In this document: piece after piece, positions 3,001 through 30,662 of the stretch | Layout of the letters: every line of letters starts with the position of its first letter | Numbering within the stretch: the first letter of the stretch is position 1 | Virus record (IMG/VR): IMGVR_UViG_3300048911_000270 | Location: 1,064 to 65,063 of that record | Source of the DNA: a virus | DNA length: 64,000 bases | Reading direction: 5' to 3' (one strand) | Translations under genes and position numbers: made by a program | Notes under the pieces: generated by a model | Told to the model about the DNA's origin: nothing | The model's input: only the letters and a program-made list of their open reading frames with translations | The model's database searches: none

Positions 3001-3852
3001 GGTCTGGTCGACGGCCTTCTTGTGGGCGACGGCCTGCTTGACCGCGCCCATCGTGGCCCCGGCGTAGATGCCCATGGCGCCACCGGCCGCGACACCGAAC
3101 GAGGCGGCGGCAGCGGTCGCCCCGCCCAGCAGGTTCGTCAGCGCGGGGAGCTGAGGCAGGACCGAGGCGATGAGCCCTGGAAGGCTCATGAGGGAACCCA
3201 GGTGCAGGTTCAGCGGGTCCTTGATCTTGCGGACCCTGCGCCGCGAGGTGTCGTCATCGTCGTCCGTGTCGCCGTCGCCGAGGTCCGGGACGCGCGGGGC
3301 ATCCGGGTCCGGGTCGGGAGTCGGGTCTCCCCCGCCGCGCCGGGCAGGACTGACACGCGGGTTGGGCCCGGTCGCGGTGCGGATCGTGATGGGGGCAGCG
3401 GCTGCGGCGCGGATGGCGGCGATGGAGGCTGCGGCGTTGCGGGTGTCCACGTCGGCGTGGATCGTGAGCGTCCGGGCGCTCATGGCGGTGATCGCTGCAT
3501 CTAAGGACGCGAGCGTCGCCAGGGCGGCCGTGTCGTCCACCTGGGCCCGGACGGTGATGGCCGTGTGGTTCAGGTGGTCGGCCTGGGCCTGTAACGAGGT
3601 GAGCTGTGCGGAGAGATCGGCGTAGCCCGATAAGGACGCGGTGACGGAGATGTCCCTAAGGCTGCGTAACTCCTCCTTCAAGGCGGTGATCTTGGCCTTG
3701 GCTTCGGTGTCGTCCAGCTCGATTTTCGGGGTGTACTTCTGCTTGGCGAACTCCTCGGCGTCCTTCTTGGCCTGCTGAAGGTCGCGGTTGAACTCGGAGC
3801 GGTCTAATCGAAGGTTGGCTTCGATGCTGCCAGCATTGTAAGAACCCGACAC
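1..3852 (-). CDS. Tape measure protein with C-terminal SLT lytic transglycosylase domain (runs off the window edge)
   Basis: Translated by hand from GTG at 3852 (RBS GAGGAG): MSGSYNAGSIEANLRLDRSEF..., long Ala/Trp-rich helical repeats, then SLT motif LITRESGWNPKAIN...GLAQTIPSTF...ANVAAAIRYI. Absent from the ORF track because there is no stop in the window. Lies downstream of the tail chaperone. Confidence 0.93.
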   Translation of the reverse strand, partial: MSGSYNAGSIEANLRLDRSEFNRDLQQAKKDAEEFAKQKYTPKIELDDTEAKAKITALKEELRSLRDISVTASLSGYADLSAQLTSLQAQADHLNHTAITVRAQVDDTAALATLASLDAAITAMSARTLTIHADVDTRNAAASIAAIRAAAAAPITIRTATGPNPRVSPARRGGGDPTPDPDPDAPRVPDLGDGDTDDDDDTSRRRVRKIKDPLNLHLGSLMSLPGLIASVLPQLPALTNLLGGATAAAASFGVAAGGAMGIYAGATMGAVKQAVAHKKAVDQTQIALEKAQERLAGTTAGTEAYKKALKDVTEAEKAHKKAIDDLTPAEKKFNNSLEQTKGAWQSFIGATSKYTLAPVTTVIQGAALALPKFIPLIKEMAPVIQDVADGLKNWMSGDGLTRFVTFLRTYGIPIVRNTILAFRGFATAGGALVRAFGPVAEKMSGYFKTLGDRASAWGKNGGAERFRERFMQSWHQLKPIFLGLITTVKHIWDILDGTGTSNGHAIADVLDTINLAISNLKPAAVKALGEIFQSISDVAIELAPVIGITSKAIVDIVNALPPGTIRLIADAMIAWKLAIIGWNAAVAVWGFLVTVIEAVETAWIALTIAWGLSPIGVIVTAIVALIAVVVVIATKTTWFQTIWSYTWAAIKTASLWVWNNALKPMFQGIWTGLQEVGKWGMWLWTHALKPAWEATAAGALWLWHTIKPALVFIGDAFVFLAKIWWTVYSTIFKVVFILLEAAVKALWLFVLKPVFGWIMAGWHALGAGFRWVYNHLLKPAWEAFASAAVTTYNHTLGPVFGWIGDGFKAMGNGFRWVYNHIIKPAWDAVAGAAKALWTQYIKPIFQGIQDWIGEKWRAIKDNVFAPMKTFFTKTIPGWGTTMKKGLIDAFDSAWKGIQKVWDNVKKAIGTPIYWVAKYVWNDAIYAIMDKIASFVNTKNPLGRINTDKIPHFAQGGAVPHTPGSTPGKDSVNAVLMPDEHVFTREDVAAMGGHERVKAFRSALHGGRSVQGANSSGRFGLGGWIEDAGSSMKSAASKGLDALENAALGALAVVVDPVINKANSTIDKLVPGSGDWSNLAAGIMKKPLKEIKDFVHSEDKKVSFHARNGTIPTGQHLAVINAALKAAKVPPPGTLAAWQAGLNTLITRESGWNPKAINLTDSNAKAGHPSQGLAQTIPSTFNAYVPSSLRGRGITDPVANVAAAIRYIVATYGNISNVQQANASKAPKGYWTGTDGAAPGLAWVGERGPELVNFHGGETVYNNRDSLRMASMGSLHGYASGTRHQ

Positions 3853-3963
3853 TGGCCCGACCTCTCCTCGCCCGAGTACGCATGTCGGATATGTAGCCGA
3901 CGCTCCAAGATTACCTTTTGGGGGTCGGGCAGTATAGAGCGATCTCCCGTTTATGAAAATGCT

Positions 3964-3998
3964 CGTGGGGTCGGAGCTATTTCAGCTCCGACCCCACG
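3964..3998. terminator. Stem-loop between the tail chaperone and tape measure genes
   Basis: CGTGGGGTCGGAGCT-atttc-AGCTCCGACCCCACG perfect inverted repeat. Confidence 0.5.
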
Positions 3999-4023
3999 AT
4001 CTCCACCCGGCACGGCGAGTCTT

Positions 4024-4269
4024 TTAGACCCCTGGAGGAAGGTCGTCCCAGCTCGTCAATTCGACGGCGCCTCCCGACGAACCACCGTCGTCGTCCTCCC
4101 CATGGAACTCAGGGTCCTGGTTTAGTTGTTCGACGTACATCCGCTGGTCGTGCCAGGGAAGTGCGTCCCACTGCTGCCGGGTGAGGCCGAGGATTTTCAG
4201 CACCGTGTAATACAACCGGCGCTGGTCCTCTCCTCCGGTCAGTCCGTCGTAGCGGCCATCAATTTTCCC
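4024..4269 (-). CDS. Tail assembly chaperone -1 frameshift extension
   Basis: The -1 frame after G GGA AAA reads PGKIDGRYDG...LGLTRQQWDALPWHDQRMY...; classic G/GT arrangement. Confidence 0.8.
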   Translation of the reverse strand, partial: GKIDGRYDGLTGGEDQRRLYYTVLKILGLTRQQWDALPWHDQRMYVEQLNQDPEFHGEDDDGGSSGGAVELTSWDDLPPGV

Positions 4270-4628
4270 GGGTTGAACTGCTCCTGGAGCCACCGGGAGA
4301 AGAGAACCTTGTGGCGCCAGGGAAGCTGGGCCAGGATCTCGACGGACGGGGTGTTCTTGCACAGACGCGCAGTGAGGGCGTCCATCTTCTTCTCCAGCTC
4401 ATCGGCGCGGTCGGAGATCTTGTCCATCTCCTCGTCCGATAACTGCTCGGGGTCGATGTCCTGGACGTCCTTGTACTCGCGGACGACGGCGAGGACGGCC
4501 TTGCGGTAGCCCGCCATGGCCTGCTGGGACGGCTCGGGAACCGTGCCCTTGGCCTCGGGGCCCTCCACGAAACCGGTGAAGTCGTAGTCCAGCGGCTCGA
4601 CGGCCGTTGCTGCGGTGAAACCTGCCAT
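4239..4628 (-). CDS. Tail assembly chaperone (short form)
   Basis: MAGFTAATAVEPLDYDF...QFNPGKLMAATTD, between major tail and tape measure; contains slippery GGGAAAA at 4269-4263. Confidence 0.85.
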   Translation of the reverse strand: MAGFTAATAVEPLDYDFTGFVEGPEAKGTVPEPSQQAMAGYRKAVLAVVREYKDVQDIDPEQLSDEEMDKISDRADELEKKMDALTARLCKNTPSVEILAQLPWRHKVLFSRWLQEQFNPGKLMAATTD

Positions 4629-4690
4629 GGTGCTGTAGTCCTTCTCGCTGTGCCGGGTGAATAGTTCGATGTGAGGGATCACGAAGGCCC

Positions 4691-5284
4691 TTAGAGAGCG
4701 GCGGCGATCATTTCCTGGATGACGACCTGGGACGGCGCGCACGTGCCTTCGAACTGGAAGCTGTACATGCGCTTCTCGTTGGACCGGCGGAACGAGGTGT
4801 CCACGTTCGATCCGACGACGCCCTGCGGGATCAGGTACCGGCGCCAGTAGCCCTGGACGTTGACCGTCTCCAGGCCGATGGCCCAGGAGTTGAGGTTGTC
4901 CTGGAGCGTGAGCGTCTGGTAGCCGGGGATGCCGGTCGCCGCAGCGGTGGTGACGAGCGTGCCGCCGCCGTAGGCCCACAGCGCGTGCTGAAGGTTGTCC
5001 TCGGCGAGGTCGCCTGACACCTGGTAGCTGTGGCTGTCGGCGAGGACGAGAGCGGGGGTGCTCTGCTCCTCGATGTTGATGGTCTTGGTCGACGTGCCGA
5101 TCTGGAGCTTCCAGCCCTGGTCGGTGGCGCCGAGGTTCTGCCAGTTACCGCCCCAGTCAGCCCCCTTGGCGACGGTAACCGCCGGTAAGAGAGCGGGGAT
5201 CGCCGGGTCGTACGGCTGGATCCAGGCACTTGCGACGCCGACGACGACGTTCTTCGGATTGATCGATCCGGGCGTAGTAACCAC
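4691..5284 (-). CDS. Major tail protein
   Basis: 197 aa with WQNLGATDQGWKLQI...INIEEQSTP motif typical of actinophage tail tube proteins; synteny. Confidence 0.8.
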   Translation of the reverse strand: MVTTPGSINPKNVVVGVASAWIQPYDPAIPALLPAVTVAKGADWGGNWQNLGATDQGWKLQIGTSTKTINIEEQSTPALVLADSHSYQVSGDLAEDNLQHALWAYGGGTLVTTAAATGIPGYQTLTLQDNLNSWAIGLETVNVQGYWRRYLIPQGVVGSNVDTSFRRSNEKRMYSFQFEGTCAPSQVVIQEMIAAAL

Positions 5285-5419
5285 TTCCCTAAATAGCTCT
5301 TCCGGTCCCCCGGATAGAGGCGTTTTCCTGGTCCGCGTTTGTTGGCCTTACGCCCGGACCTTAGAAGCCTGCCAGTGGCAAGTATAAAGTCGCGGATCAC
5401 CAATGCCAACTACGGGCTA

Positions 5420-5647
5420 TTACGCGCTTTCGCGGTAACGGATCCCGTACTTGAGGCACATCATGCGGACGATGTCCGCGTCCCGGGGCGAATAGCCGGT
5501 GCCCGCAGGAGTGAGGTCGGGAAGGCCCACGCCGCCCAACTGGAACAGCGTGTTCGGGTGCTCCAGGTAGAGGTACACCAGCGGCTCCGGAGCCTCGGGT
5601 GCCTTTTCCACCTGCGCCTTCGCCGGTGAAGCCTTTTCTACTGCCAT
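5420..5647 (-). CDS. Small hypothetical virion-module protein
   Basis: MAVEKASPAKAQVEK..., 75 aa, RBS GAGGA, in the structural operon. Confidence 0.55.
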   Translation of the reverse strand: MAVEKASPAKAQVEKAPEAPEPLVYLYLEHPNTLFQLGGVGLPDLTPAGTGYSPRDADIVRMMCLKYGIRYRESA

Positions 5648-5657
5648 GACGTTTTCC

Positions 5658-6101
5658 TCAGCTCTCGTAAATGCTGGATTCGGCTTCGACCACATACATG
5701 GCCTGAAAGGACGGCCGGTTGGCACTGTCCAGGGGCTGCCCGGCCGGGCTGCCCTGCGGGGTCGAGCCGAACCGGGAGATGTAGACGACCTGCTCACCAC
5801 CGATGACCGGGCGCCCGGCCGTGATGATGACCTTGTCGATGTCCCGGGCCAGTTGCTCCGTCTCGGCGAACACGTCGTTCCACGTCGCCGCAGACAACCC
5901 CATCCGGCCAACGACCTTCACCTGAAAGGCGCGGGCCTCGATGTGACCGTCGACCTGCATGCTCCCGCCGCCGACCGGAGTCACCACGAGGTACTTCCGG
6001 GGCTCCGACGGCGGACCCACGGGCCCTTGGTAGATGACCGGCATCTCCTGGCCGTCCAGGGGCTGCTCTCCCAGCCAGTTCATGAAGTCTCTGGTGAGCA
6101 T
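5658..6101 (-). CDS. Tail terminator-like protein
   Basis: MLTRDFMNWL...FQVKVVGR...RPSFQAMYVVE; position upstream of major tail; ATG overlaps the upstream TGA. Confidence 0.65.
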   Translation of the reverse strand: MLTRDFMNWLGEQPLDGQEMPVIYQGPVGPPSEPRKYLVVTPVGGGSMQVDGHIEARAFQVKVVGRMGLSAATWNDVFAETEQLARDIDKVIITAGRPVIGGEQVVYISRFGSTPQGSPAGQPLDSANRPSFQAMYVVEAESSIYES

Positions 6102-6561
6102 CAGAAGATCCCCAGCGCCTTCAGTTCCTGCTTGGCCCGCAGCTCGTCCTCGGTGAGGCGGTGCACGTTCGGCGGGCGGTGGTAGACCTGGTCGGTCCCG
6201 TCCAGCACTTCCGGGGAGCCCGACGCCCGCAGGTCGTGGAACTCCCGGGGGGCCAGCTCGTAGTACTCCAGGTTGAGGTCTTCCATGGACTCGGCCATCG
6301 CCCGGTGCATGGCCTCCCGGCCGTCCAGAATGGCGTCTGCGAGCTTGTGCAGGATCTCGGGGTTCTTGTTCATCAGCGCCGTGGCCAGAGCCAGCGCGAT
6401 ACCGCCCTGAGGGTGGTTGAACTCGATGCCGACTTCCTGGTAGTGAGCATAAACTGTATGCTAGGTCTGACCTGATCAACAGTGAGAGTGCCAGTTAAGT
6501 CGGTGGCACTCGCGTTGATCAGTTCGTCAATCCCTTCGGAGAAGGAATTACCCATGGACAT
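6101..6561 (-). CDS. HK97 gp10-like tail completion protein, frame-disrupted by a 17 nt insertion at about 6455-6471
   Basis: 5' part M(SM)GNSFSEGIDELIN...TLTVDQV and 3' part VYAHYQEVGIEFNHPQGG...LAPREFHDLRASG join into the family VDQVYAHYQ motif if 17 nt are skipped; strong RBS GAGGAGGTG. Confidence 0.7.
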
Positions 6562-7087
6562 CACCTCCTCGAACTCCGCCGAACCCGCAACCGGTTCCAG
6601 CACCTGCGCTGTGGACGACTGCACGAGCGCCGTGTGGGCCCGCAAGATGTGCTCCCGCCATTACCAAAACTGGCGGCTGTACGGCTCCCCACACGGCACT
6701 GGATGGCACGATCCCGACAACATCCGGGATCGTCGTATCGCGTTCTTCTGGGAGAACGTGACCAAGCAGGGACCTGACGACTGTTGGCCCTGGAATCGCA
6801 AGCCCACGGCCAACGGTTACGGACAACTCCGCTGGCTGACAGGCACCGTTTCTGCGCATCGCGCCGCCTACGAGATCGCTTACGGACAACCCCCGAAGGC
6901 GATCGACGGCAAACGCGTGAACATAGACCACACCTGCCATGACCCGGCGGTATGCAAGCTGAAGACGGATTGTCCGCACCGGCTGTGCTGCAACCCGGCC
7001 CATCTGGAAGCTGTGACCTGGAGAGAGAATTTGGACCGAGGAGACACCAGTCGTCCCGGAAACGGCGGCCTGCCCACGGCGCGATAG
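6554..7087 (+). CDS. HNH homing endonuclease, antisense to the structural operon
   Basis: CWPW...GYG...SAHRAAYE...IDHTC...CCNPAHLEAVTWRENL; RBS GAAGGA. Confidence 0.88.
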   Translation: MDITSSNSAEPATGSSTCAVDDCTSAVWARKMCSRHYQNWRLYGSPHGTGWHDPDNIRDRRIAFFWENVTKQGPDDCWPWNRKPTANGYGQLRWLTGTVSAHRAAYEIAYGQPPKAIDGKRVNIDHTCHDPAVCKLKTDCPHRLCCNPAHLEAVTWRENLDRGDTSRPGNGGLPTAR

Positions 7088-7092
7088 CAACC

Positions 7093-7545
7093 TCACCACC
7101 ACTCCCGGCTGAGGTTGAACTGCTCCAGGCTGAACATGGAGCCCTCGTAGGCGTTCTCCACGACGGGGTTGTCCGTGCGCTGGGTGGACGCGGCGCCCGG
7201 GAGGGACAGCATGATTTCCCCGGTGCGGATCTTTTCCAGCGTCGCCATGGCGGACCCGGCCTTGACCTGCACCGGGTGGTTCTGCGCGATGGGGATGCTG
7301 CCGAGGTAAGTGATCGTGGCGTAGGACGCGGCAAGGTCACGCGAGAGCATGCGCACGATGGGCGGGACGGCGGAGGCCTCGATCGGCAGGGAGTATCGGG
7401 CGGTCAGGTAGCCGTCGATGAGCGCGTCGGCTTCATCGATCTTGTCCTGGATGTCCGGGTCCGGTAACACGGCGGCGCTGGTGGGGTCCATCAGCCCGCC
7501 GGAAGCGAGGGCCGTTCTGACGCTCGCTAACGTGGAGTACGACAT
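7093..7545 (-). CDS. Head-to-tail adaptor (Mu gp36/DUF1320-like)
   Basis: MSYST...IDEADALIDGYLTARYSLP...PPIVRMLSRDLA...LEKIRTGEIML. Confidence 0.8.
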   Translation of the reverse strand: MSYSTLASVRTALASGGLMDPTSAAVLPDPDIQDKIDEADALIDGYLTARYSLPIEASAVPPIVRMLSRDLAASYATITYLGSIPIAQNHPVQVKAGSAMATLEKIRTGEIMLSLPGAASTQRTDNPVVENAYEGSMFSLEQFNLSREWW

Positions 7546-7569
7546 TACGGCCCTCCCCTCTCGTAGGTG

Positions 7570-7869: not shown

Positions 7870-7974
7870 TTACCTGACTCCTTGTGTCACTATGCCGGGC
7901 TGTGAAATAGCCTCAATGGGTCTTATCAGACAGACCCAATTCTGACACAAAAGTCAAGGCCGGGCCATAGTGGG

Positions 7975-8811
7975 CTATTTCCCCGGGACGTACTTCTTAC
8001 CATTCAGAATGTCCGACAGAAGCGGGGCCGAAATAGCCTCCTGCTGCGCGAAAGCCGTCCTCGTACCCCTGTGACCAGCAAACCTAGCCCGGATCTCCTC
8101 CGCCCGCTCCACCGTCATCTTCACCCGAGGCTTCCCACCCGACGGCACATAATCCGGATCCACCCACGTCTGGTTCGCCAGCAGATACGTGATAGTCGCC
8201 TTCACCACGCCATACTCCGCCGCCAGTTCGCCGTGCCGGTAGTTGCCTGTCGCATACTTCGCCCGGATCTCCCGGACTAGGGGCCACGTCAACTCGGCGG
8301 CAGGATTGTTGTCTCCCCGGCGGTGCTCCCCGCCCAGGTTGCTGAGGGGGACATAAGCGGGGTCGTGCCACAGCTTGTTCTGGAGGACGTCCTGCACGGT
8401 AGACCGATCGACCTGGAACCGGGCCGCCAAGTCGGCCTGCGTCCACTTGCGGGTGGCGAACAGTTCGCGCAACCACGTGGCATCCGTGCGCGACAGAGCG
8501 GTGGTGCCGTTGATGACGCGGTCGTCCGACTGTTCAGCAGCGGTTCCCCAGCAGAGGTTGGAGAAGTGGTTGTTGAACGGGTTGCTGTCCCGGTGCCGTA
8601 CCTGCGCCTCCGGGAAGGGCTTCGCCCCGTGGAACGCCTCGCAGACCAACGTGTGGACGCGCCGGGAGTACTTCTTGCCGTCGAGGTGCACGATCACTTG
8701 CAGGTAGCCGTGGTTGCCTATCACCGGCTTCACCACCGAGCGCGGGCCGGTGATCTGCCCGTCTTCGCGGATCCGGTACAGGGTGAACGTGGGGTGTGTG
8801 AGTTCCAGCAT
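7975..8811 (-). CDS. HNH endonuclease with three C-terminal HTH-like repeats
   Basis: GYLQV...RVHTLVCEAFHG...VRHRDSNPFNNHFSNLCWGT, then repeated LAAxYGV/LAARFQV modules; TAGCAT -10 box 7 nt before ATG suggests a leaderless transcript. Confidence 0.85.
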   Translation of the reverse strand: MLELTHPTFTLYRIREDGQITGPRSVVKPVIGNHGYLQVIVHLDGKKYSRRVHTLVCEAFHGAKPFPEAQVRHRDSNPFNNHFSNLCWGTAAEQSDDRVINGTTALSRTDATWLRELFATRKWTQADLAARFQVDRSTVQDVLQNKLWHDPAYVPLSNLGGEHRRGDNNPAAELTWPLVREIRAKYATGNYRHGELAAEYGVVKATITYLLANQTWVDPDYVPSGGKPRVKMTVERAEEIRARFAGHRGTRTAFAQQEAISAPLLSDILNGKKYVPGK

Positions 8812-8839
8812 GCCCTACATGCTACATCATTACTAGAAC

Positions 8840-8873
8840 GCCAGAACCCCCTCCGTTTGGAGGGGGTTCTGGC
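8840..8873. terminator. Intrinsic terminator after the major capsid gene
   Basis: GCCAGAACCCCCTCC-gttt-GGAGGGGGTTCTGGC. Confidence 0.65.
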
Positions 8874-8902: not shown

Positions 8903-9817
8903 CTAGATACCCGTTATCACACGTCCTGCCTTCGGCTGGTCGAGGAAGATCGCCGACTGGCGGACGACGTTGCAGCGCCACGTCTCGTTCGTGGAGTTGT
9001 GCTCCAGCGGCGTGACGTCAAGGGCGCGCTCGTCGGCGATGCCGCCGATGGTGCCCGCCTCCAGGAGGATCGCGCTGTTGGTCGGCACGCGCCACGACTT
9101 GACGACGCGGAACTGACCGAAGAGCAGGCCCGGCAGGGACAGCTTGTCGGCGGACGCGGTGCGGTCCGAGCCGACGAAGTACTTGTTCATGTCCGAGTTG
9201 AGCGCCAGGTCCATCGCCCGCGCGTGGTGCAGGATCAGGGTGTTCGGCTCGAAGCCGAACTTGGCCACGCCGGTCTGGTTCGTGGTCTCCGCGTCGGCGA
9301 GCTGGATGGCCAGCATCGCGTTCGCCAGGGTCGAGCGGACGTCCGTGGCGGTCGCCCACGCGGTGCCGGAGGCGGTCGACGCGAGGCCCGCGATGGCCTG
9401 GGCCAGGAACGCGTCCTCCCAGGCGGCCTTCATCGAGTTCACGACCTGCGTGATCGACGTGTTGACCCTGTCCATGTCATTCCTGCGCCGCATCTCTTCG
9501 GTGAACTCGATACCGAAGGCCCGCTTGATGGTGCGCGCGGCCTTGCCGATGCCGAGGTTCGCCGTGATCAGCGGGATCTCGCCGCCTTCAGCGACCACCG
9601 AGGGGCCGCCGTTGGCGTAGAGCGGCGTGGACTCGTTGTACAGGACGACGCCGCTGGGGACGTCCTGTACCTTGCGTAACACCGTGTCGGTGATGAACTG
9701 CTGGTCGGCCAGGGAGAGGATCCTCTCCTTGATGACCGCCGGGCGCTTCAGCAGGGTGTTGACTGTGAGGCGGTAGCCGTCGTTGCTCGAAACGGTTCCG
9801 ACCGTGGTCTGAGGCAT
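8903..9817 (-). CDS. Major capsid protein (HK97 fold)
   Basis: 304 aa; VAEGGEIP...KRAFGIEFTEEMRRRN...; downstream of scaffold and decoration genes. Confidence 0.88.
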   Translation of the reverse strand: MPQTTVGTVSSNDGYRLTVNTLLKRPAVIKERILSLADQQFITDTVLRKVQDVPSGVVLYNESTPLYANGGPSVVAEGGEIPLITANLGIGKAARTIKRAFGIEFTEEMRRRNDMDRVNTSITQVVNSMKAAWEDAFLAQAIAGLASTASGTAWATATDVRSTLANAMLAIQLADAETTNQTGVAKFGFEPNTLILHHARAMDLALNSDMNKYFVGSDRTASADKLSLPGLLFGQFRVVKSWRVPTNSAILLEAGTIGGIADERALDVTPLEHNSTNETWRCNVVRQSAIFLDQPKAGRVITGI

Positions 9818-21677: not shown

Positions 21678-21693
21678 AAGCGGTTCGCTCCTT

Positions 21694-22230: not shown

Positions 22231-24123
22231 TCAGAGGCACTTTTTGCCCTTCTGACGCCGCTTCTTCTGCGCCTTGATCGCCGCATCCGCCAGGTAGCGC
22301 TTCGGATACTTCGTGGTCAGGCTGTTGACTGTGAGCCGTGCCCCGTCCTGGGAACTCCCGGTGGGTACGGTGACCTGCTCCGATGCCATGGGCTGGGACA
22401 GGTTGACGTTGTTGCGGAGGTTGTCCTTGATCTCTTCCTGCTGGGCCTCGTAGTGGTCCAGCAGCCGGACCTGGGTCGGGGTTAGCGGCCGACCGGCCTT
22501 CTTGTCCGCGAGGGCCTGACGGGTGGCGTCGGAGATCAGCTTCTGCTTGGCCTTGGCCTTCGCCGCCTTCTCCTTCGCCGCCTGCTTCTGCGCCCGGAGC
22601 TTGGCCACCTCCGCCTTCTTCTTGGCCATCTCCTTGGCGTGCGCGGCCTTCTTGGCGGCAGCCGCCTTGGCCCGCGCCGCCCGCTTGGCCTCGGCCTCGT
22701 GGTGCTTCTTGGCGGAAGCGGCCTTCTTCGATGCCTTCTTGGCGTCGGCGGTGGCCTTGTTCTTGTACGCCTGGGCGATGGCCGCCTTGGTGGCGTCGGT
22801 GTGACCGGTCATGTCCTTGATCTCCTGCGCAGACTTGTCTTTCTGCGAGGGACCGACGGGGTTGCCGTTCTTGTCGACGGGGACCCAGTTGTGTTTCCAG
22901 CCGACGGCGCCCGGGGGGAGCTGGTGCTTGCCGTGCGGGTTGTCCTTCGGCTTCTTGTCCTTGGCCTTCGGCTTGTGCGCCTTCTCCGGCCGGGGGCCGG
23001 AGGATCCCGCGATATCCGCCGGGACGGCCAGGTCGATCGCAGAGGAGCCGTCCAGGACGGCTCGCAGGAACGTCATCGGCTGGGACAACGTCACCTCCTC
23101 CCCCGGGTCGGATGCTGCGTGGGTAACGGTGACCACGGGGAACTCTCCTTCGTGTGAGACGTGTGTGACGTGCAGGCGGGTGCCGCGCGGCAGGACGGTT
23201 TCGTCTCCCCGGACGGGGATGATCGGGGCGCCCTTGCGGCCTTGGATGCGGAAGAGAACCTTTTTGCCGGTCTCGTGTCCGCGTTCGTGCATGTAGTACT
23301 CCGCCACGTCCCGGGAGAACGCGGCGGATCCGTAGCCCTTGTCGTGCAGGACGGAGCCGGGCGTGAGCGCGGCGATCTGGTCGTCGGTGAGGGAGGCCCC
23401 GCGCCACAGGTCGGCGTCCCGGCTCAGGGACGCCTTGGCGGCCACCGAGTCGAGTCCCTTGTTACGGGCCTCCTCCTCGGCGTCCAGGGCTTCCCCGTTG
23501 CGCAGCTTGCGGTTGATCCGCAGCGTGTCCTTGTCGAAGGCCACGTAGTCGTTGACGGCCGCGTGGTCACTCTTGCCCAGAACGGCTTCCCGCAGATGGG
23601 TGTTGCCGCCCGGCAGGGAGTCTGTGTCGGCGTCCGATACGGCCTTGCCGTGCACGGCGACGTTGGCCCAACTGCCCTTGTGGTCAACGGTCGGGTAGGG
23701 GCGGTCTTCGCCCTCTTCCTCTTCGGCCATGGCCAGCAGAGCCTTCATGGCGTCCATGGCCGACCACTTGCCGTCCGGGGTGCGGGGCTCGTCGGGGTTG
23801 AAGTTCGCCAGCTTGACCGTACGGCCCTTGTTCGGTGTCGCGTGGGCCCTGGCCTTGGAGGCTTCCCAGTCGGCCAGGGCGGCGGATGCGGCAGCGCGTA
23901 CTTCGGGGCGGACGTTGCCGCGCCCGGAGGCCCAGTTTTTGATGGTGCCGAGGGCCGTGGCGATGGCCCGGGACTTGTCCATGCCCCGCTTGGTCATCAG
24001 GCTGTGCGCGATGTTTTGCACGTACGGCGGAAGGCTCAGGGAGCGGTCCCCGAAGAGACCGGGTCCTCCCGGCTTCCCGAGCGGGTGCGGTGTGACCGCT
24101 AACGCCGCTGTCTCGGCACTCAT
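22231..24123 (-). CDS. Head-cargo protein with central ADP-ribosyltransferase domain
   Basis: FNPDEPRTPDGKW motif; ART: VNDYV...INRKLR...LWRG...HDKGYGSAA...DETVLPRGTRLHV; Lys/Ala-rich C-terminus. Confidence 0.72.
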   Translation of the reverse strand: MSAETAALAVTPHPLGKPGGPGLFGDRSLSLPPYVQNIAHSLMTKRGMDKSRAIATALGTIKNWASGRGNVRPEVRAAASAALADWEASKARAHATPNKGRTVKLANFNPDEPRTPDGKWSAMDAMKALLAMAEEEEGEDRPYPTVDHKGSWANVAVHGKAVSDADTDSLPGGNTHLREAVLGKSDHAAVNDYVAFDKDTLRINRKLRNGEALDAEEEARNKGLDSVAAKASLSRDADLWRGASLTDDQIAALTPGSVLHDKGYGSAAFSRDVAEYYMHERGHETGKKVLFRIQGRKGAPIIPVRGDETVLPRGTRLHVTHVSHEGEFPVVTVTHAASDPGEEVTLSQPMTFLRAVLDGSSAIDLAVPADIAGSSGPRPEKAHKPKAKDKKPKDNPHGKHQLPPGAVGWKHNWVPVDKNGNPVGPSQKDKSAQEIKDMTGHTDATKAAIAQAYKNKATADAKKASKKAASAKKHHEAEAKRAARAKAAAAKKAAHAKEMAKKKAEVAKLRAQKQAAKEKAAKAKAKQKLISDATRQALADKKAGRPLTPTQVRLLDHYEAQQEEIKDNLRNNVNLSQPMASEQVTVPTGSSQDGARLTVNSLTTKYPKRYLADAAIKAQKKRRQKGKKCL

Positions 24124-24150: not shown

Positions 24151-24474
24151 TCAGTGGAATGCGGCGATCTTGATGGTCGCCACGGACGCGGTGACCTTGA
24201 CGGTGTCTCCGGTGACGGAGTACGGGAAGTCCGCCGGGGCCAGGAGGTAGAACGTGCTCGCGGAGAGCGTGTAGACCTTGTCGGGCACGACCAGGCCGGT
24301 CGGCATGGTCACGTTGGACTTGACGGTGAGCGTGCCCCCGGCGGTGCCGCCATCGACGTACAGCCAGGTCTGGCCGTCGTTCTGGAAGGTGTTGCCGGTG
24401 ATGTCGGCGACGGCGGTGGCGATGGTCGCCAGGCCGACGGCCGAAGCAGAAACGACGTTTAACGCAGTAGCCAT
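24151..24474 (-). CDS. Small beta-rich virion protein
   Basis: 107 aa; GNTFQNDGQTWLYV; RBS GAGGGAG; head module. Confidence 0.6.
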   Translation of the reverse strand: MATALNVVSASAVGLATIATAVADITGNTFQNDGQTWLYVDGGTAGGTLTVKSNVTMPTGLVVPDKVYTLSASTFYLLAPADFPYSVTGDTVKVTASVATIKIAAFH

Positions 24475-24566: not shown

Positions 24567-25187
24567 CTATTTCCTTCTCAGATGTTCCGGAAGGGCCGTC
24601 ACCACTGGTTTTCCTTCGTAGGCGGGAAGGGGGTAGCAGCGGCAGCGCGGGTGTCTTCCTCCGGGGTGCAGTCCTTCCGGGGGTGTGCTCGCGGAGTAGT
24701 TCTTTCCGATAAGCCACCGACAGTCGGGGGTGGTGTTGTCGTCCAGAATTCCGCCCCAGCCGAGAGTGTCGCTGGATGTGGTGGTCTGCATGTTCACGGA
24801 GCCCTTGGCGGCGGCTATCCGGCGGGCGCACGCCTGTTGGTGCTGGGCGAACAGAGCCTTCTCCCGGGCGAGGGCTTTGCCCAGGTCAGGGGCGTCTGCG
24901 AGGCGTCGGACGGCTGCGGCGAGGTAGGCGGCCCGGTAGCGCATGTTCTCCCGGCGGGCTGCGGCGACGGGGTCCGTGCCTTTTGCGAGGGCCTTCTTAC
25001 CGGGCTTGTACTTCATCGCGGCGAGGATCCCGAGGACGAGCTTTTTCGGGGTTTTCAGCACAGCGGAAATAGCCTGTATTGCGGCGATGAGAGGAGGTCC
25101 CGCCAATAACACGGCGAGAACAGCCGCGATCTCGGCATCGTGCTGAGAAGGGGCCTTTTGGGCTATTTGCTGGTCTTGCTCGTCCAT
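24567..25187 (-). CDS. MuF-like head morphogenesis protein
   Basis: WGGILDDNTTPDCRWL...HPGGRHPRCRC; directly after portal. Confidence 0.8.
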   Translation of the reverse strand: MDEQDQQIAQKAPSQHDAEIAAVLAVLLAGPPLIAAIQAISAVLKTPKKLVLGILAAMKYKPGKKALAKGTDPVAAARRENMRYRAAYLAAAVRRLADAPDLGKALAREKALFAQHQQACARRIAAAKGSVNMQTTTSSDTLGWGGILDDNTTPDCRWLIGKNYSASTPPEGLHPGGRHPRCRCYPLPAYEGKPVVTALPEHLRRK

Positions 25188-25275
25188 GCGCTCTCCCGGT
25201 AACATCCGTTTCGGGTGGTTGGGTGATCGAACCCCCGCTAGTCGAAGCACTGCTCCTAGCGGGGGTTCGGTTTTT

Positions 25276-26856
25276 TTATTTGCCCTTCCCGGCACCCTGA
25301 CTACCGGTGGAACCCTTTGCCGCAGCGGCCTTCTGCTGGACCATCTTCGCGGCCTTGTTGATGCTCGCCCCGGCCTTCGCCAGCTCCGCCTTGCGCTGCA
25401 CGTTCGCAGCCCCCACGGCCGCGCCCGACTGCGGGCCGCCCTGGGCCGCGAGCTGCTTCTGCGCGTCCAGACCCGTGCGCTTGGTCTCCAGCTCCAGGTC
25501 CATGCGCTCGTCAATGCGGTCGGCGAGCTGCTTGAACTCCTGGTTGACCTCTTCCATCGGCATGTCGAGGTAGGTCCCCATCATGCGGGTCAGCTCCGTC
25601 ATGAACGCCTGGGGGACGCGGAGTTCGGTCGGGGTCGTGCCGAACGCCGTCAGCAGCTCCTTGACGACGGTCAGGTCACCCTCGGACAGCGGCCCGAACT
25701 CGAACGTCGGGCAGACCGCGCCGGGGCCGAAGTTGTACATGACCAGGTCGGCGATCACGTAGTTCGTGATCGATTCGGCCAGCTCCCGCGCGGTGCCCGT
25801 CAGGGACTGGAGGAAGAAGTCGCTCTGGTCCTTGGACAGGGCGTACGAACCGCCGGGGCTGTCGGGCAGGTTGGTGAACCCGGCCAGCACGGACGCGGCC
25901 ATCTGGTTGTCCAGGTAGTCGATGAACTCCTTGAACAGGGCGGCGGCCCCGGTGCCCAGCTCCAGCGTGCTGATGTCCGTCTCGGTCGACGTGCCCAGCA
26001 CACCGCCGTTCTTCAGGTGCCGCAGCGCCTGCGCGTACTGCCGGGCCCGGGTCTCGTCCTCGGCCCGCACGACGTACCGGCCGGTGGCGTTGGCCTCCAG
26101 GAACGTCGCCCAGAGGAACAGCACCTTCTGCTTCTTGTCGTGGAGCCAGTAGATCAGCTCCATGTCGGAGTGACCGCGCGCGGCGTTGATGTGCTGGTTG
26201 TTCAGGTGCACCCAGGCGTACTGGGCGGGGATGTCCACCCAGATGTCCGGCCAGATCTCCCCGCCGACCGACACCGGGCGCTGCCGGAAGCCCCGGAACG
26301 CGCCGGACTTGGGGTCGCGGGCGATGGCCGTGGTGGGTGAGGGGCGGAACGCCAGCCGGTCGTAGACGACCTTGCCGTCCTTGTCGGTGAAGACCTTCTC
26401 GAAGCAGGCCTTGCGGTAGGTACGCGCGGAGAGAGCCTGCGCGATGACCAGGCGCATCGGGGTCTTCATGCCGCCCTGGTTCGCCGGGGTCGTCAGCGCC
26501 TTGGTGACGAACTCGGCCTCGCCCTTGTCCCCCGGTCCGGCGACGATCTTCCACGGCGCGGAGCGGATCGGGAGGGTGAGCACCTGCTGGATCGTGCGGG
26601 CCTTGCCGTCCTTGGCGAGCATTTCGTCAAGGGACAGCGACCCCCATTCGTCCTCGTCCAGGAGAATGCGGCCGGGGATACCGGACCACGATGCGACATA
26701 AGCGTCGGTTGTGGTGAAAAGGCTACCGGCCTCCGTGTCAAGAACGACGTCGGGAGCCCCCTTCACCGTCTTGGTCGGTGCGGCCTTTTCAGGCGCGTTA
26801 CCCGACGCGTAAAAGGGTGCCGATAACGGCACATCGCCAGCCTGCTCTGCGCCCAC
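25276..26856 (-). CDS. Portal protein (Mu gp29/DUF935-like)
   Basis: 526 aa; QQVLTLPIRSAPW...ARGHSDMELIY...DNQMAASVLAGF...GSYALS; follows terminase. Confidence 0.88.
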   Translation of the reverse strand: MGAEQAGDVPLSAPFYASGNAPEKAAPTKTVKGAPDVVLDTEAGSLFTTTDAYVASWSGIPGRILLDEDEWGSLSLDEMLAKDGKARTIQQVLTLPIRSAPWKIVAGPGDKGEAEFVTKALTTPANQGGMKTPMRLVIAQALSARTYRKACFEKVFTDKDGKVVYDRLAFRPSPTTAIARDPKSGAFRGFRQRPVSVGGEIWPDIWVDIPAQYAWVHLNNQHINAARGHSDMELIYWLHDKKQKVLFLWATFLEANATGRYVVRAEDETRARQYAQALRHLKNGGVLGTSTETDISTLELGTGAAALFKEFIDYLDNQMAASVLAGFTNLPDSPGGSYALSKDQSDFFLQSLTGTARELAESITNYVIADLVMYNFGPGAVCPTFEFGPLSEGDLTVVKELLTAFGTTPTELRVPQAFMTELTRMMGTYLDMPMEEVNQEFKQLADRIDERMDLELETKRTGLDAQKQLAAQGGPQSGAAVGAANVQRKAELAKAGASINKAAKMVQQKAAAAKGSTGSQGAGKGK

Positions 26857-26914
26857 GGCACTCCCCTACTCCTGCGTATCTATCCGGCTTATGCTAACAT
26901 TCGCGATTTTTGCG

Positions 26915-28621
26915 CTACCAGCCCGCGAGTTCCATATCCGAGGAGGAATCCCACTTCTCCACGACGGTCTCGGTATCGACGGGCGGGGCGTACCTCTCGT
27001 CCGGGTCCTTCCATCCGGAGTCCTTCATCTCCTCGGCGCTCTGCACGACCGAGGGGAGCCAGAAGGCGTGGATGATGGCGTCCGCGCGGTCGGTGGACCG
27101 GCCCAGACGCTTCTTGATGTCATCCTTCTTTTCGATCTTGTACTTCGGGGTACCGGGCTGCGTGTCGAAGCGCGGGCAGGTCAGCTCCGCCAGCAGCTTT
27201 TCGTCCCTCGGGAACGCGATCGTCGCCCCGCCCCGGCGCGCCGGATTCAACAGCTCCCGCAGGTTCCACCAGGCCGCCGCACGGTCGTTGACGAACCCCA
27301 TCTTCTTGGTGGTGTCCTTGCGCCCGGAGTTCGCCGCCGCGATGAACGCGTACGTGTCCTGAGAGTCGCGGCGCAGCTTGGCCACCACGCCGGAACCCAC
27401 ACCGATGCCGTCCACGATGTACTTCGCGTTCGTCGGGGCGCCGTGCTTGACCGCGATCTGCTGAAGGTCGTCGGCCGTGGTCAACGGGTCCTTGGAGGGG
27501 AACGCCAGCAGCTCGCGGACCACGTCGCCCTGACGGACCGCAGCCGTCGTCTCGTCCTCGCCGCCGTCGGAGATGTCCGCGCCGATGACGATGTCACCGG
27601 GCTGCTGCTGCTTCGGCTCGACCAGGCAGACCGGCTCCTCGGTGTCCGGGTCGATGATGTACGTGCCGTCCCGCCAGCGCTCCCAGCGGGCCATGGCAGC
27701 CTCGGCCCAGGCCAGCGGGATGACGCCCTCGGAGGACGTCTCGGGGAACAGGGCCCGCACCTTGGACATGAACAGGGAACTGTCGGCGCCCCAGCCGACC
27801 ATCGACTCGTAGACCCAGGTCGGGCCGACCAGCGTCTTCTGGAGCGTCGGGGAGACCTCTTCGGTGGAGAAGGGGATGCCCTCCGCCTTCATGTACTCCA
27901 CCAGCTTGGGATACCGGGAGCATGCCTCCTCGGTCATCAGCGGGCTGCGTAAGGCGTCGATGCGGATCTTGTTCCACTTCTCGCCGAGCGGAGACTCCGG
28001 GTTGCACACGGAGCGGAAGTGGGAGCCCGGGTCGGTGGGGTTCCCGATGGCCAGCACGCGGGAGGACTCGTTGGTGACCAGGGAGTCGACGGCGTCCCAG
28101 ATGGACCGGTCGACGCCGCACGCCTCATCGATCACGACCAAGATCTTTTCGGCGTGGAAACCCTGGAACGCGGAGTCTTCCTTGTCCGGGGGCTTCTGGC
28201 CGATACCGACCAGCTCGCCGTTGATCTTCCACGAGGGGATCGGGGAGGACAGGATCTGACCGGGGATGGGGAAGCCGCGTTCGGCCGCGAGGTTGTGGGC
28301 GCGCTGGATGTAGCGCCACAGGATGGAGGCCACCTGGCGGGCTGTGGGCGCCGTGGTGACGAGGAAGACCTCGTTCATGGGGATGGTGGCGATCCACCAG
28401 GCTGCGAGCCGGGATGCGAGGTGGGACTTGCCTGCGGCGTGACAGGACTGGACGGCTGTGAATCGGTGGTCCCGGACGGATTCGCAGATCTGTGTCTGCA
28501 TGGACCACATGTCCTCGCCGAGGACGTCGTTAACCCAGCGGGCGGGATTGCGGTGGTCGTCCTTTTTGGCCTGTAACTCGTAGAGAACGGCAAGCCTGTC
28601 CGCCCATGCGCTACCTGCCAC
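26915..28621 (-). CDS. terL: Terminase large subunit
   Basis: TAVQSCHAAGKS Walker A-like, LVVIDEA Walker B, LAIGNP, nuclease IGADIS...VDGIGVG...STDRADA. Confidence 0.93.
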   Translation of the reverse strand: MAGSAWADRLAVLYELQAKKDDHRNPARWVNDVLGEDMWSMQTQICESVRDHRFTAVQSCHAAGKSHLASRLAAWWIATIPMNEVFLVTTAPTARQVASILWRYIQRAHNLAAERGFPIPGQILSSPIPSWKINGELVGIGQKPPDKEDSAFQGFHAEKILVVIDEACGVDRSIWDAVDSLVTNESSRVLAIGNPTDPGSHFRSVCNPESPLGEKWNKIRIDALRSPLMTEEACSRYPKLVEYMKAEGIPFSTEEVSPTLQKTLVGPTWVYESMVGWGADSSLFMSKVRALFPETSSEGVIPLAWAEAAMARWERWRDGTYIIDPDTEEPVCLVEPKQQQPGDIVIGADISDGGEDETTAAVRQGDVVRELLAFPSKDPLTTADDLQQIAVKHGAPTNAKYIVDGIGVGSGVVAKLRRDSQDTYAFIAAANSGRKDTTKKMGFVNDRAAAWWNLRELLNPARRGGATIAFPRDEKLLAELTCPRFDTQPGTPKYKIEKKDDIKKRLGRSTDRADAIIHAFWLPSVVQSAEEMKDSGWKDPDERYAPPVDTETVVEKWDSSSDMELAGW

Positions 28622-28698
28622 ACCCGCCCCTTTTCCCCGCTAAATCCGACCCTTGTACACGCATTGTACGGAAAGATCCAGCGGGGAAAACAGGTGAG

Positions 28699-29067
28699 CT
28701 ATTTGGATCCGGTGCCGCCCCCGTATCCGTGCTCTTTCACGAATGCTTCGACGGCTTCATTGAGGGATTCTCCGGCCTTGTCGGTGAGCGTTCCGACGTA
28801 CCGGCTGAACGTCATCAGTTCGTGCCCGGTCTTCACCCGCTCCGTGGTGACGATGTAGGGCCACTCGTCGCCGTCGGGGTCATGCCGGTCCAGCCAGTGC
28901 TGGACGAACGACCGGGTGTCCGGTCCGCCCTTCTCGGCCAGCTCCGGGGCGAACGTGTTCAGCAGCCGCAGGTGAATGCTCTTGGTGTCCCCGAAGCCCT
29001 GGTCCAGGACCACGATCAGGGTGTCTCCGTCGTGCGTGGCGGTGACCCGGGCCCGCCGGTCCCACAT
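28699..29067 (-). CDS. Thermonuclease (SNase-like) protein
   Basis: HDGDT...HLRLLNTFAPE...FSRYVG. Confidence 0.7.
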   Translation of the reverse strand: MWDRRARVTATHDGDTLIVVLDQGFGDTKSIHLRLLNTFAPELAEKGGPDTRSFVQHWLDRHDPDGDEWPYIVTTERVKTGHELMTFSRYVGTLTDKAGESLNEAVEAFVKEHGYGGGTGSK

Positions 29068-29412
29068 TCAGTACTCTCCGGCCGAGGTCTCAGGCATCGC
29101 GGCCAGGTCTTCCTTCATGTGGCGCTTCATCCGCGACCGGGCGTCCTCGCGCAGCCGCGTCTTGAGCCGGTGGTCCCGCAGCTCCTCCTTGAGCGAGGCG
29201 CGGGCCGCGAACGACCGGGCCTGGGACTCGAAGAAGTCCGCGAAGGCGCCGACGACCGCGCCGATGGCGTCCAGGGCGTCGATGAGCAGGCACGTCGGCG
29301 TCCAGCGCAGGGACGGCAGATCGGTGCTCTCGATCTTCCCCGCCACGTACACGGCGGTGAGAGCGTCGTCCTCGGAGTCGAAGTGTTCGTCAGACATGGG
29401 ATCCTCCGTCAC
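29068..29412 (-). CDS. Hypothetical protein
   Basis: ORF translationally coupled to both neighbours. Confidence 0.5.
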   Translation of the reverse strand: MTEDPMSDEHFDSEDDALTAVYVAGKIESTDLPSLRWTPTCLLIDALDAIGAVVGAFADFFESQARSFAARASLKEELRDHRLKTRLREDARSRMKRHMKEDLAAMPETSAGEY

Positions 29413-30662
29413 AGAATTTCAAGGTCGGACCAGCCGTCCGAACCCACGGAAAACACCAGGAGCCCCGCACGGGAGTCGTCCCCGCTGGTGTTCGAGTACC
29501 AGGAAGACCCGTTGTCGAGGGCCGGAGCCTGGAGCCAGAGCTTCCCGGACCCCACCTCTTCCGCCCGGAAATGGTGGAAATGCCCGGTCAGGAGGATGCG
29601 GGCGGCAGCGACCGGCTGCTCCCCGAACGTCTGGCCGCGCCACCAGTCCACGATCTTGCCGGGGCTGCGGACCTGGTGGCCGTGCGAGAGACCGACGACG
29701 GTCCCGGCGACGTCCACGGACACGGTCTCCTGCCACTTCTCCGGCAGGACGAACCGCACGTGGCCGTAGGCGTCGGGGTTGCAGTTGAACGCGTCGGCGA
29801 CCTGCTGCATCGTCTCGATGCCCCAGTCATCGCTGGGCGGGCCGACCATCTTCCCGTTCACCCGGTGCTGGGCGTGGTTGGAGGCGGCGACCGCTGCGGT
29901 GACGGAGTCGAACTGCCGGGCGAGCCGGTTGAGCCCGTCGAAGGTCAGGCGCCTGTGCAGGCGGACCATCTCGGTCATCGTCAGGTCGTTCGTGCCGAGC
30001 TGCGCGGCCACGTTCTGCTGGCCCTCGATGCAGTCCCCTGCGTCCATCCAGAATGCGGAGTCGACCGGGCGGCCCACGGCCTTGAGGTCGCGGACGTGGT
30101 CCTGGAGCCGGTCGAACTTCTCGGCTACGCGGGCGATCAGCTCGGGGGTGCCGCCCCGGCGGTCGACCTTGCCGGTCTGGGGGTCGGCGTAGGCGACCAC
30201 GAGGCCCCGGGAGGCCGCTGCGAGGCGCCTGGGGGTCCTCTTGACCCTCATGGCGTCCCGGACCATCGTCGCGACGTCCTCGGCCCCGTAGCCCGCCATG
30301 GTGGCCGGTGCGACACGGAACTTCAGGCGCCAGACGGCCTGGGTGACGGCGTCCTCGCCCTCGGCCGCGCGGGTCCAGGCGGCCGGGTCGTACTTGGCCT
30401 CGGCAAGCTGGACGGTCCAGCCCTCGGGAACGGTGAGCCCCAGCTCCTCGACGGCAGCCTTCCAGGCGTTCTGGTCCTGCGGTCCGGTCGTGGTGGGGGC
30501 GGTGACGACGGTCATGGAGCCGTCGGCACCGAAAGCGACGCCGGGCTGCCACTCGCGGCCGACGGGGGCCGTGGGGTTCACTCCGGCCCTGGACGGTGCT
30601 GCCTGGCCCTGGGAGAGCCGCAGCAGGTCGTCCAGGTCGCGGGATAACCCGCTGCCGCTCAC
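29409..30662 (-). CDS. Calcineurin-like metallophosphoesterase
   Basis: AYADPQTGK...DAGDCIEG...SNHAQHR...SHGHQ...TGHFHH...APALDNGS; GTG start overlaps the upstream TGA. Confidence 0.82.
   Translation of the reverse strand: MSGSGLSRDLDDLLRLSQGQAAPSRAGVNPTAPVGREWQPGVAFGADGSMTVVTAPTTTGPQDQNAWKAAVEELGLTVPEGWTVQLAEAKYDPAAWTRAAEGEDAVTQAVWRLKFRVAPATMAGYGAEDVATMVRDAMRVKRTPRRLAAASRGLVVAYADPQTGKVDRRGGTPELIARVAEKFDRLQDHVRDLKAVGRPVDSAFWMDAGDCIEGQQNVAAQLGTNDLTMTEMVRLHRRLTFDGLNRLARQFDSVTAAVAASNHAQHRVNGKMVGPPSDDWGIETMQQVADAFNCNPDAYGHVRFVLPEKWQETVSVDVAGTVVGLSHGHQVRSPGKIVDWWRGQTFGEQPVAAARILLTGHFHHFRAEEVGSGKLWLQAPALDNGSSWYSNTSGDDSRAGLLVFSVGSDGWSDLEIL

Follow-up and report, generated by a model that had tools for sequence, protein, structure and literature searches.

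TTA codons near the starts of virion and lysis genes in a clade of high-GC phages: a candidate translational gate set by host tRNA-Leu(UAA)

Introduction

In Streptomyces, the leucine codon UUA is read by a single tRNA, which is dispensable for growth and whose mature, charged form accumulates late (PMC10732093, PMC2000904). TTA codons occur in just 2–3% of host genes, mostly regulators and genes of secondary metabolism (PMC13500790), and their strong bias toward the 5' ends of genes has been reported as specific to the Streptomycineae (PMC4255298). Streptomyces phages usually do without UUA, which is present in only 3 of 100 surveyed terminases of such phages, and this avoidance has been interpreted as a way around hosts able to hold back the bldA tRNA at no cost to themselves (PMC10732093). 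Here, we analyze a 64,000-nucleotide stretch of viral DNA (the window; bases 1064–65063 of IMG/VR record IMGVR_UViG_3300048911_000270), in which in-frame TTA codons are concentrated near the starts of genes for virion and lysis proteins.

In phage Hau3, a UUA codon in the terminase gene is followed by frame-breaking inserts of 7 to 10 nucleotides (nt), and translational bypassing has been proposed to yield the terminase in the absence of the tRNA (Smith et al. 2013, as described in PMC10732093). The SLP/eCIS (extracellular contractile injection system) tail-like particles need bldA because of a 5' UUA in the gene of their LuxR regulator, SCO4263/slpR (PMC8505568), and for phage CW39 there is a speculative note on nine TTA genes (PMC13350457). 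Our literature searches returned no account of systematic, conserved, 5'-proximal TTA in the late genes of a phage lineage, the related work being that on Hau3 and StrepC.1, CW39, SLP, and bldA in general; likewise, they returned no report on how phages grow on bldA mutants.

Results

TTA codons in the virion module

The record that contains the window (hereafter G000) is 89,483 bp long, with a GC content of 65.6% and a CheckV completeness of 70%; a self-trained codon-usage caller found 136 genes in it. Circular permutation of the contig was considered and rejected, as the ends, when joined, give no in-frame read-through; hence, the record is a fragment. A minus-strand virion module extends from the tape measure gene to approximately position 30925, and the identities of its genes were assigned using Pfam and PHROGs (Table 1).

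From the tape measure gene to position 30662, the module holds 25 in-frame TTA codons, distributed over 14 of its 25 genes, and every gene that bears one is an intact open reading frame (ORF) homologous to known virion proteins. Outside the module, there is one TTA in the endolysin gene, three elsewhere in the window, and two beyond the window, in small ORFs and at their very 3' ends; the other ~110 genes of G000 hold five TTA codons in total. A first-pass annotation of the window had counted about 27 TTA codons in virion and lysis genes. All positions that it listed are present in the sequence, and the 25 module codons and the endolysin codon stand, whereas the 27th, in a “gp10-like” gene, rests on an ORF (5658–6479) that we do not accept as a gene. 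The same annotation found no TTA in the Prim-Pol, ADP-ribosylglycohydrolase (ARH), ArdC, LuxR, and two HAD genes, which agrees with our own check; the Prim-Pol gene is in the part of the window outside the virion module. Among the further TTA-bearing loci it had named, 35107–35319 and 38848–39414 were confirmed, and 39415–39648 does not have the look of a real gene.

The assignment of TTA codons depends on translation starts in three genes. The 1697-aa ORF includes its TTA codons if it starts at GTG 21677, as the first-pass annotation had it, and this start is backed by an AAGGAG ribosome-binding site and by the conservation in relatives of the 26 N-terminal residues that it adds, among them two of the three leucines encoded by TTA. 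For the MuF-like gene, ATG 25187 is the most likely start, because it is aligned with the only starts available in two relatives. The endolysin start, ATG 61219, is preceded by GGAGG. The codon-usage caller trimmed the starts of all three genes, because 5' TTA codons score as noncoding, and moved that of the 1697-aa ORF downstream to a TTG. Since the caller penalizes TTA, the TTA counts are conservative.

A further TTA lies five codons upstream of the MuF start (25200–25202; 13–15 nt before the ATG), in frame, and is also present in two related genomes, G002 and G001 (described later). The stretch around it shows conservation at the protein level, but two of the three genomes have no usable start codon there. 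This arrangement resembles the UUA-ending upstream ORF that has been described for adpA (PMC10732093).

Enrichment relative to composition and position

The comparison of late with other genes was based on our conservative gene calls, which give 21 late TTA codons. TTA accounts for 21/661 leucine codons in the late genes of G000 and 5/1171 in its other genes (Fisher odds ratio [OR] 7.65, P = 3.5e-6), and at least one TTA is found in 12 of the 25 late genes and 4 of the 111 others (P = 1e-7). From an independence expectation (TTG × CTA / CTG), 0.17 late TTA codons are predicted, compared with the 21 observed; in the other genes, five were observed and 0.8 would be expected compositionally. When usage was normalized within synonymous families and all degenerate codons were ranked, TTA was the strongest late-versus-other outlier in G000 and also in G002 (OR 7.36), and all other codons among the top eight outliers had ORs of approximately 2 or less.

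Related codons do not share this behavior. A/T-ending codons make up 9.5% of codons in late genes versus 11.6% in other genes; CTA, CGA, and GTA are rarer in late genes than in the others; and the GC content at third codon positions (GC3) of late genes is equal to or above that of other genes. Late genes show no excess of TTG (21/661 vs. 57/1171) or of TTA triplets in the two other reading frames.

The enrichment is strongest near the start of the gene. Within codons 2 to 30, TTA represents 9 of 63 leucine codons (14%) in the late genes of G000 and 1 of 257 (0.4%) in its other genes, and the corresponding numbers for G002 are 14/94 and 1/358. In this region, the remaining A/T-ending codons are just 1.2 to 1.3 times more frequent in late than in other genes, compared with a factor of ~35 for TTA among leucine codons. 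The median TTA position is codon 47 in G000 and codon 22.5 in G002, whereas that of other leucine codons is ~240 (P = 9e-8 and P = 1e-10, respectively), and no late TTA lies beyond codon 224, even in proteins of at least 1,500 residues. The module contains two internal controls, the HNH endonuclease gene and the plus-strand polymerase/primase-like gene, and both are free of TTA. Generally AT-rich 5' ends, which the first-pass annotation had named as a possible trivial cause, fail to account for TTA: a model of AT-rich or weakly structured 5' ends requires enrichment across all A/T-ending codons and all gene classes, which is not what we found.

The bases flanking TTA in G000 and G002 also differ from those flanking other leucine codons. 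The preceding base is G in 59% of cases (35% for other leucine codons), and the following base is C or T in 61% (39% for other leucine codons; chi-square P = 0.0065).

Conservation of TTA in related phages

Relatives were found in 17 IMG/VR contigs, with terminases 84–91% identical, and in one contig of a GTDB metagenome-assembled genome (MAG); together with the window, they represent nine lineages, with terminase nucleotide identities of 82–89%. Three of the records (G001, G002, and G003) were taken whole. G002 is 124,939 bp long, 97% complete, and ~74% identical at the nucleotide level to the genome of the window, and G001 and G003 are overlapping fragments of a single third phage. In G002, TTA accounts for 26/934 leucine codons in late genes and 7/1807 in other genes (OR 7.4, P = 1.6e-7), and 18 of 35 late genes carry TTA versus 3 of 152 others.

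Conservation in related phages, which the first-pass annotation had proposed as a check, is evident for individual sites and for genes. Three sites are TTA in 94–100% of relatives, namely codon 5 of the 107-aa gene (17/17), codon 16 of the terminase gene (15/15 relatives covering the site), and codon 8 of the 630-aa gene (16/17). For comparison, retention at columns where leucine is conserved is ~14% for CTT and TTG, 44% for CTC, and 74% for CTG. Genome-wide, 9/22 and 10/19 of the TTA codons of G000 are retained, versus 10–15% for TTG. Sites shared with fewer genomes include codons 16 and 74 of the tape measure gene, which are also TTA in G002 and G003; codon 47 of the major capsid gene, kept in G002 and G001; and, in the scaffold/protease-like gene, codon 115 (kept in G002 and G001) and codons 6 and 189 (also TTA in G001/G003).

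In other cases, the gene retains a TTA and the position moves. This applies to the portal, exonuclease, major tail, chaperone-like, and tailspike genes (Table 1), even though the major tail orthologues share 89% amino acid identity. In G002, the best match to the tailspike (53% amino acid identity) and an adjacent 837-aa gene carry TTA at codons 3 and 7. Orthologues of the Mu gp36-like adaptor gene have no TTA at all, and the TTA at codon 6 of the Acb2/Tad1-like gene is not conserved in relatives. Such turnover within retained genes is the pattern expected if selection favors an early UUA per gene, rather than a UUA at one given leucine. The genome comparison shows a codon-specific, class-specific, and 5'-biased enrichment of TTA that is conserved across nine lineages, with turnover of positions within genes, and that we take to be under selection.

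More distant phages and plasmids lack the pattern. The 50 kb of Streptomyces phage Bogota are free of TTA, and high-GC IMG/VR relatives with 33–42% terminase identity have zero to four TTA codons per locus, without a 5' bias. An 86-kb phage-plasmid of Saccharopolyspora pogona (39% terminase and 38% capsid identity) has 12 scattered TTA codons, also without a 5' bias, and a 130-kb plasmid of Streptomyces sp. NBC_01220 has five. Hence, the 5' TTA pattern of late genes is a clade-specific trait.

tRNA content

Searches with ARAGORN and Rfam identified a single tRNA gene in the genome of the window and a single one in the near-complete G002. The anticodon loop of the phage tRNA (CU-CAA-AA) reads UUG, not UUA. 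No tRNA(UAA) was found, and all eight family loci that span this position carry a CAA tRNA; hence, UUA must be decoded by the host. A phage tRNA that compensated for rare codons would be expected to match the enriched codon, which this one does not.

The bodies of the CAA tRNAs differ among members of the family (Table 1 for the window; L046:5898–5972, L004:2930–3005, and L059:175–257 for relatives). Some are 83-nt, class-II, leucine-like molecules, and there are two distinct 76-nt, class-I-like forms, one of which resembles a tRNA-Gln body. The conserved element thus appears to be the anticodon.

Lysis and cell-wall genes

The endolysin gene lies far from the virion module, among TTA-free genes. 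Atlas neighbors of its N-terminal domain are amidases and peptidoglycan-binding proteins, whereas its counterparts in G002 and G001 are GH25 endolysins that have only the C-terminal, ~90-residue wall-binding domain in common with it. Despite this swap of the catalytic domain, the gene carries TTA in all three genomes (Table 1). G002 also encodes an r1t-type holin with one TTA. The 188-aa protein looks like a permuted papain-like amidase of the YaeF/YiiX type; both TTA sites of its gene are kept in G002, whose copy has four TTA codons. Sequence searches of the PDB with this protein and with the endolysin gave no match. Based on the TTA codons in the different endolysin versions, the G002 holin, and the 188-aa protein, the TTA-bearing set comprises virion and cell-wall lysis genes, and the earlier assignment of TTA to these two classes holds for these three lysis-related genes.

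Host and lifestyle

The similarities of several genes make a Streptomyces-like host, within the Streptomycetaceae, likely. The 15 best matches of the wall-binding half of the endolysin are Streptomyces phage endolysins, and Streptomyces phages account for 124 of 215 matching records. The DUF2637 protein has 314 plasmid matches, at 52–60% identity, of which 309 come from Streptomyces, Kitasatospora, or Actinacidiphila. ArdC is most similar to proteins of Kitasatospora and Streptomyces plasmids, the majority of all ArdC matches being from Bacillota; the recombinase matches, among those listed, come from Actinomycetota genera only; and the Atlas neighbors of the hydrolases are mostly actinobacterial. 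The sole match at the nucleotide level is with major tail genes of Streptomyces phages. The nearest cultured phages are Bogota, JackieB, Marky, and other Streptomyces phages, with ~40% identity for terminase and capsid, and an exact-protein look-up of the capsid gave metagenome matches only.

The phage family may live as a phage-plasmid. A ParA gene is present in G002 (42191–43162; L046:2191–3162) and in G001; together with the recombinase, ArdC, and DUF2637 genes, it suggests a carrier state. The closest homologues of the plasmid-style genes are on circular Streptomyces plasmids of ~125–130 kb that also encode a distant terminase.

Gene content of the window

The features discussed here are collected in Table 1.

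Table 1. Features of the window, with in-frame TTA codons given by codon number
Feature	Position	Strand	TTA codons in window	TTA codons at other positions in relatives	Remarks
Tape measure protein	1–3852	-	16, 62, 74, 87, 117		N-terminal 1284 aa in window; gene extends to contig position 165; SLT domain; plus-strand TAA at 3805–3807, 3667–3669, 3631–3633, 3592–3594, 3502–3504
Tail assembly chaperone-like gene	4239–4682	-	81	62	
Major tail protein	4691–5284	-	33	102	
Mu gp36-like head-tail adaptor	7093–7545	-	6, 27		
HNH endonuclease	7975–8811	-			Inserted in virion module
Major capsid protein	8903–9817	-	47		
Scaffold/protease-like head gene	10348–11946	-	6, 115, 144, 189		532 aa
Pectate-lyase-like tailspike	12094–13902	-	51	3 and 7	
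Polymerase/primase-like gene	14457–16253	+			Opposite strand within virion module
1697-aa protein	16584–21677	-	7, 13, 25		GTG start 21677; C-terminal ADP-ribosyltransferase domain
630-aa virion-module protein	22231–24123	-	8		
107-aa protein	24151–24474	-	5		
MuF-like head protein	24567–25187	-	27		206 aa from ATG 25187
Mu-type portal	25276–26856	-	11	6	
Large terminase	26915–28621	-	16, 224		568 aa; one continuous reading frame
Exonuclease/phosphoesterase (phrog_284)	29409–30662	-	6	12–13	Head of virion module
tRNA, anticodon CAA	34308–34390	+			Sole tRNA gene
Acb2/Tad1-like small protein	35107–35319	+	6		
ADP-ribosylglycohydrolase	35407–36486	+			
188-aa amidase-like protein	38848–39414	-	35, 134		Permuted papain-like (YaeF/YiiX C92)
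LuxR gene	41812–42327				
NlpC/P60 hydrolase	42477–42941				
HAD phosphatase domains (HAD_SAK_2, HAD_PNKP)	43459–43968, 51287–51775	-, +			RNA-repair type
DUF2637 protein, Xer-like tyrosine recombinase, ArdC	37226–38773, 56210–57112, 62250–63203				
Endolysin	61219–62127	+	13	93, 279 (G002); 89, 93, 273 (G001)	Distant from module; amidase-like N-terminal domain and peptidoglycan-binding C terminus

The HNH homing endonuclease gene, which sits between the capsid and adaptor genes, has a lower GC3 (0.84), and there is no gene at the corresponding position in G002. A few kb from the 1697-aa gene with its ADP-ribosyltransferase exoenzyme domain lie the ADP-ribosylglycohydrolase gene and the gene for the Acb2/Tad1-like sponge, and in Bogota a similar “ADP-ribosyltransferase” follows the portal and protease genes. 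This arrangement suggests that the ADP-ribosyltransferase is an injected effector accompanied by its antidote, and that there is an anti-CBASS/Thoeris function in addition. The HAD_SAK_2 and HAD_PNKP domains hint at repair of tRNA or other RNA during infection, with possible relevance to a tRNA-centered arms race.

Discussion

The statistical signal described previously is secure, and its biological reading, which would include a dependence on bldA, is plausible. We think it rather probable that the TTA codons constitute a selected translational gate that couples the production of virion and lysis proteins to the supply of host tRNA-Leu(UAA). According to this proposal, a clade of high-GC soil siphophages of ~125 kb, whose head module is Mu-like and whose accessory genes resemble those of plasmids, would have acquired UUA in codons ~5 to 120 of roughly half of the genes for virion and lysis proteins, where selection would have kept it, while the remaining genes stayed essentially free of UUA. 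In a high-GC actinomycete host, tRNA-Leu(UAA) would be scarce, and in Streptomycetaceae its role would fall to the bldA tRNA alone, which is under developmental control. A ribosome stalled at a UUA within the first ~10–20 codons, as at codons 5 to 16, could cover the start region and block the next ribosome, such that a short supply of the tRNA would throttle initiation cheaply and on many late messages together. The gate would act on top of any transcriptional control, with assembly and lysis following the supply of charged tRNA-Leu(UAA), provided that the host decodes UUA at a limiting rate that varies with its state.

How the phage might benefit can be pictured in several ways. Toxic late proteins could be kept silent in a carrier or plasmid state, the release of virions could be timed to development, or the gate could impose a simple delay. 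A more specific version of the proposal, which we put forward tentatively as one possibility, is that these are large Streptomyces phages, perhaps phage-plasmids, in which the bldA tRNA licenses particle production and lysis, while tRNA(CAA) keeps the decoding of UUG independent of this checkpoint; the arrangement would then be a bacterial counterpart of the differentiation-dependent expression of papillomavirus capsids. The first-pass annotation had proposed that progeny leave the cells only once the colony enters development; this is one among several outcomes of a UUA gate and, in our judgment, a somewhat doubtful one.

A number of observations weigh against the gate or against the host that it would require. 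Roughly half of the late genes lack TTA, most of these being small, and the NlpC/P60 hydrolase gene has none either, so not every possible lysis function would be gated, and the assignment of TTA to lysis genes has an exception here. Two of the five sites tested family-wide, terminase codon 224 (TTA in 0 of 18 relatives) and exonuclease codon 6, are private to G000, and the advantage of TTA in positional retention over all A/T-ending codons reaches only modest significance (P = 0.35 and 0.04). Whether bldA is regulatory is itself a matter of debate, since some TTA genes are expressed without it (PMC13500790). Concerning the host, the actinobacterial marker WhiB is absent from G000 to G003, and one relative, the 15.9-kb contig L059 (JAQBPS010000646.1), was binned in a “Bacillota bacterium” MAG. 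This bin has a GC content of ~62%, lacks WhiB, and holds no other piece of the phage, and since no further piece is there, the contig is probably mis-binned. The tRNA-Leu(CAA) of the same MAG matches the phage tRNA at only 59 of 83 positions.

The strongest rival is a generic slow-start ramp, in which UUA slows early elongation and thereby spaces ribosomes or tunes protein ratios, involving neither a tRNA that varies in the host nor any sensing. The 5' bias agrees with such a ramp, for which UUA, as the slowest codon in any high-GC host, would be the obvious choice, and the early genes, with 5 TTA codons compared with 0.8, are near compositional expectation and not purged. Still, TTA is as frequent in the genes of low-copy proteins (terminase, portal, and exonuclease) as in those of high-copy proteins such as capsid and major tail, no other rare codons have been recruited, and Bogota, the other distant high-GC relatives, and the two actinomycete plasmids manage without the pattern. 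We therefore regard the ramp as unlikely.

Alternatively, timing could be run by the phage itself, by altering UUA decoding or by buffering UUG through tRNA(CAA), so that late translation would lag regardless of host development. The maintenance of a CAA tRNA at one locus throughout the family, despite several replacements of its body, and the presence of the RNA-repair-like HAD_PNKP and HAD_SAK_2 genes could be taken as signs of such a timer or insulation. This explanation is nevertheless improbable, because the CAA anticodon decodes UUG rather than UUA, no enzyme that would change this was found, and TTG shows no late-gene enrichment.

Two further explanations carry very little weight. That UUA acts as a Hau3-like recoding signal, at which ribosomes lacking the tRNA bypass or shift frame into alternative or corrected products, draws on the presence of UUA in the terminase gene here as in Hau3 and StrepC.1 (PMC10732093), but none of the TTA-bearing ORFs is interrupted, alignments with relatives run through the TTA sites with neither insertions nor breaks in frame, and Shine–Dalgarno-like motifs within 18 nt upstream are found for 6/48 TTA codons versus 474/2500 other leucine codons (P = 0.35), which makes recoding very improbable. 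Equally hard to credit is an absence of function, with TTA as a by-product of composition, regional mutation bias, a foreign module, or wrong gene calls: our calls and the earlier ones do disagree at a few starts, but late GC3 is not lowered, TTA in the other two frames shows no excess, independent lineages repeat the enrichment and have invariant sites, the in-module controls are TTA-free, and our caller, which penalizes TTA, makes the counts conservative.

If the proposed gate exists, this would be the first phage known to use one rare codon to gate an entire late program, and phage production would be linked to multicellular development or to the physiological state of the host. The clade would also allow the disputed regulatory role of bldA to be examined in many genes of a natural system. 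A selected dependence on UUA is the reverse of the avoidance seen in Streptomyces phages, which implies that dependence on this tRNA would benefit the virus. In practical terms, 5' TTA enrichment could flag the late and lysis genes of uncultured actinophages from sequence alone, and might also indicate their host range. It should be kept in mind that callers trained on codon usage trim true starts and that automated annotation tends to hide the TTA signal in this family.

Comparison with known systems

The pattern resembles the Streptomyces bldA/TTA regulon in that TTA codons are in frame in GC-rich genes and strongly biased toward gene starts (PMC4255298), are conserved in orthologues, and have no alternative decoder. 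It differs in that the carrier is a virus and that TTA is found in about half of the genes of one functional class rather than in 2–3% of host genes (PMC13500790). With the terminase UUA of phage Hau3 and prophage StrepC.1, the phages studied here share a UUA in an essential late gene, which has been proposed as a “sensor” of host state (PMC10732093). Unlike in Hau3, UUA is here in frame in intact ORFs and in at least 14 genes rather than one, and no Hau3-type frame-disrupting insert was found, the terminase aligning end to end with its relatives and with that of Bogota. The logic would hence be opposite to that of Hau3, in that the tRNA is required. In the SLP/eCIS system, a single UUA lies in a regulator gene (PMC8505568), whereas here the structural and lysis genes carry UUA and the phage LuxR gene has none.

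In contrast to phage-encoded tRNAs that compensate for codon usage, the phage tRNA(CAA) is mismatched to UUA and, therefore, cannot relieve the dependence on this codon. A more remote parallel is found in papillomaviruses, whose L1/L2 capsid genes reportedly (Zhou et al., 1999) have a codon usage that is mismatched to undifferentiated cells. As in the proposed gate, rare codons and tRNA supply would limit capsid translation to a state of differentiation; unlike that eukaryotic system, with its gene-wide codon bias, the phages described here would rely on a single codon concentrated at the 5' ends of their genes.

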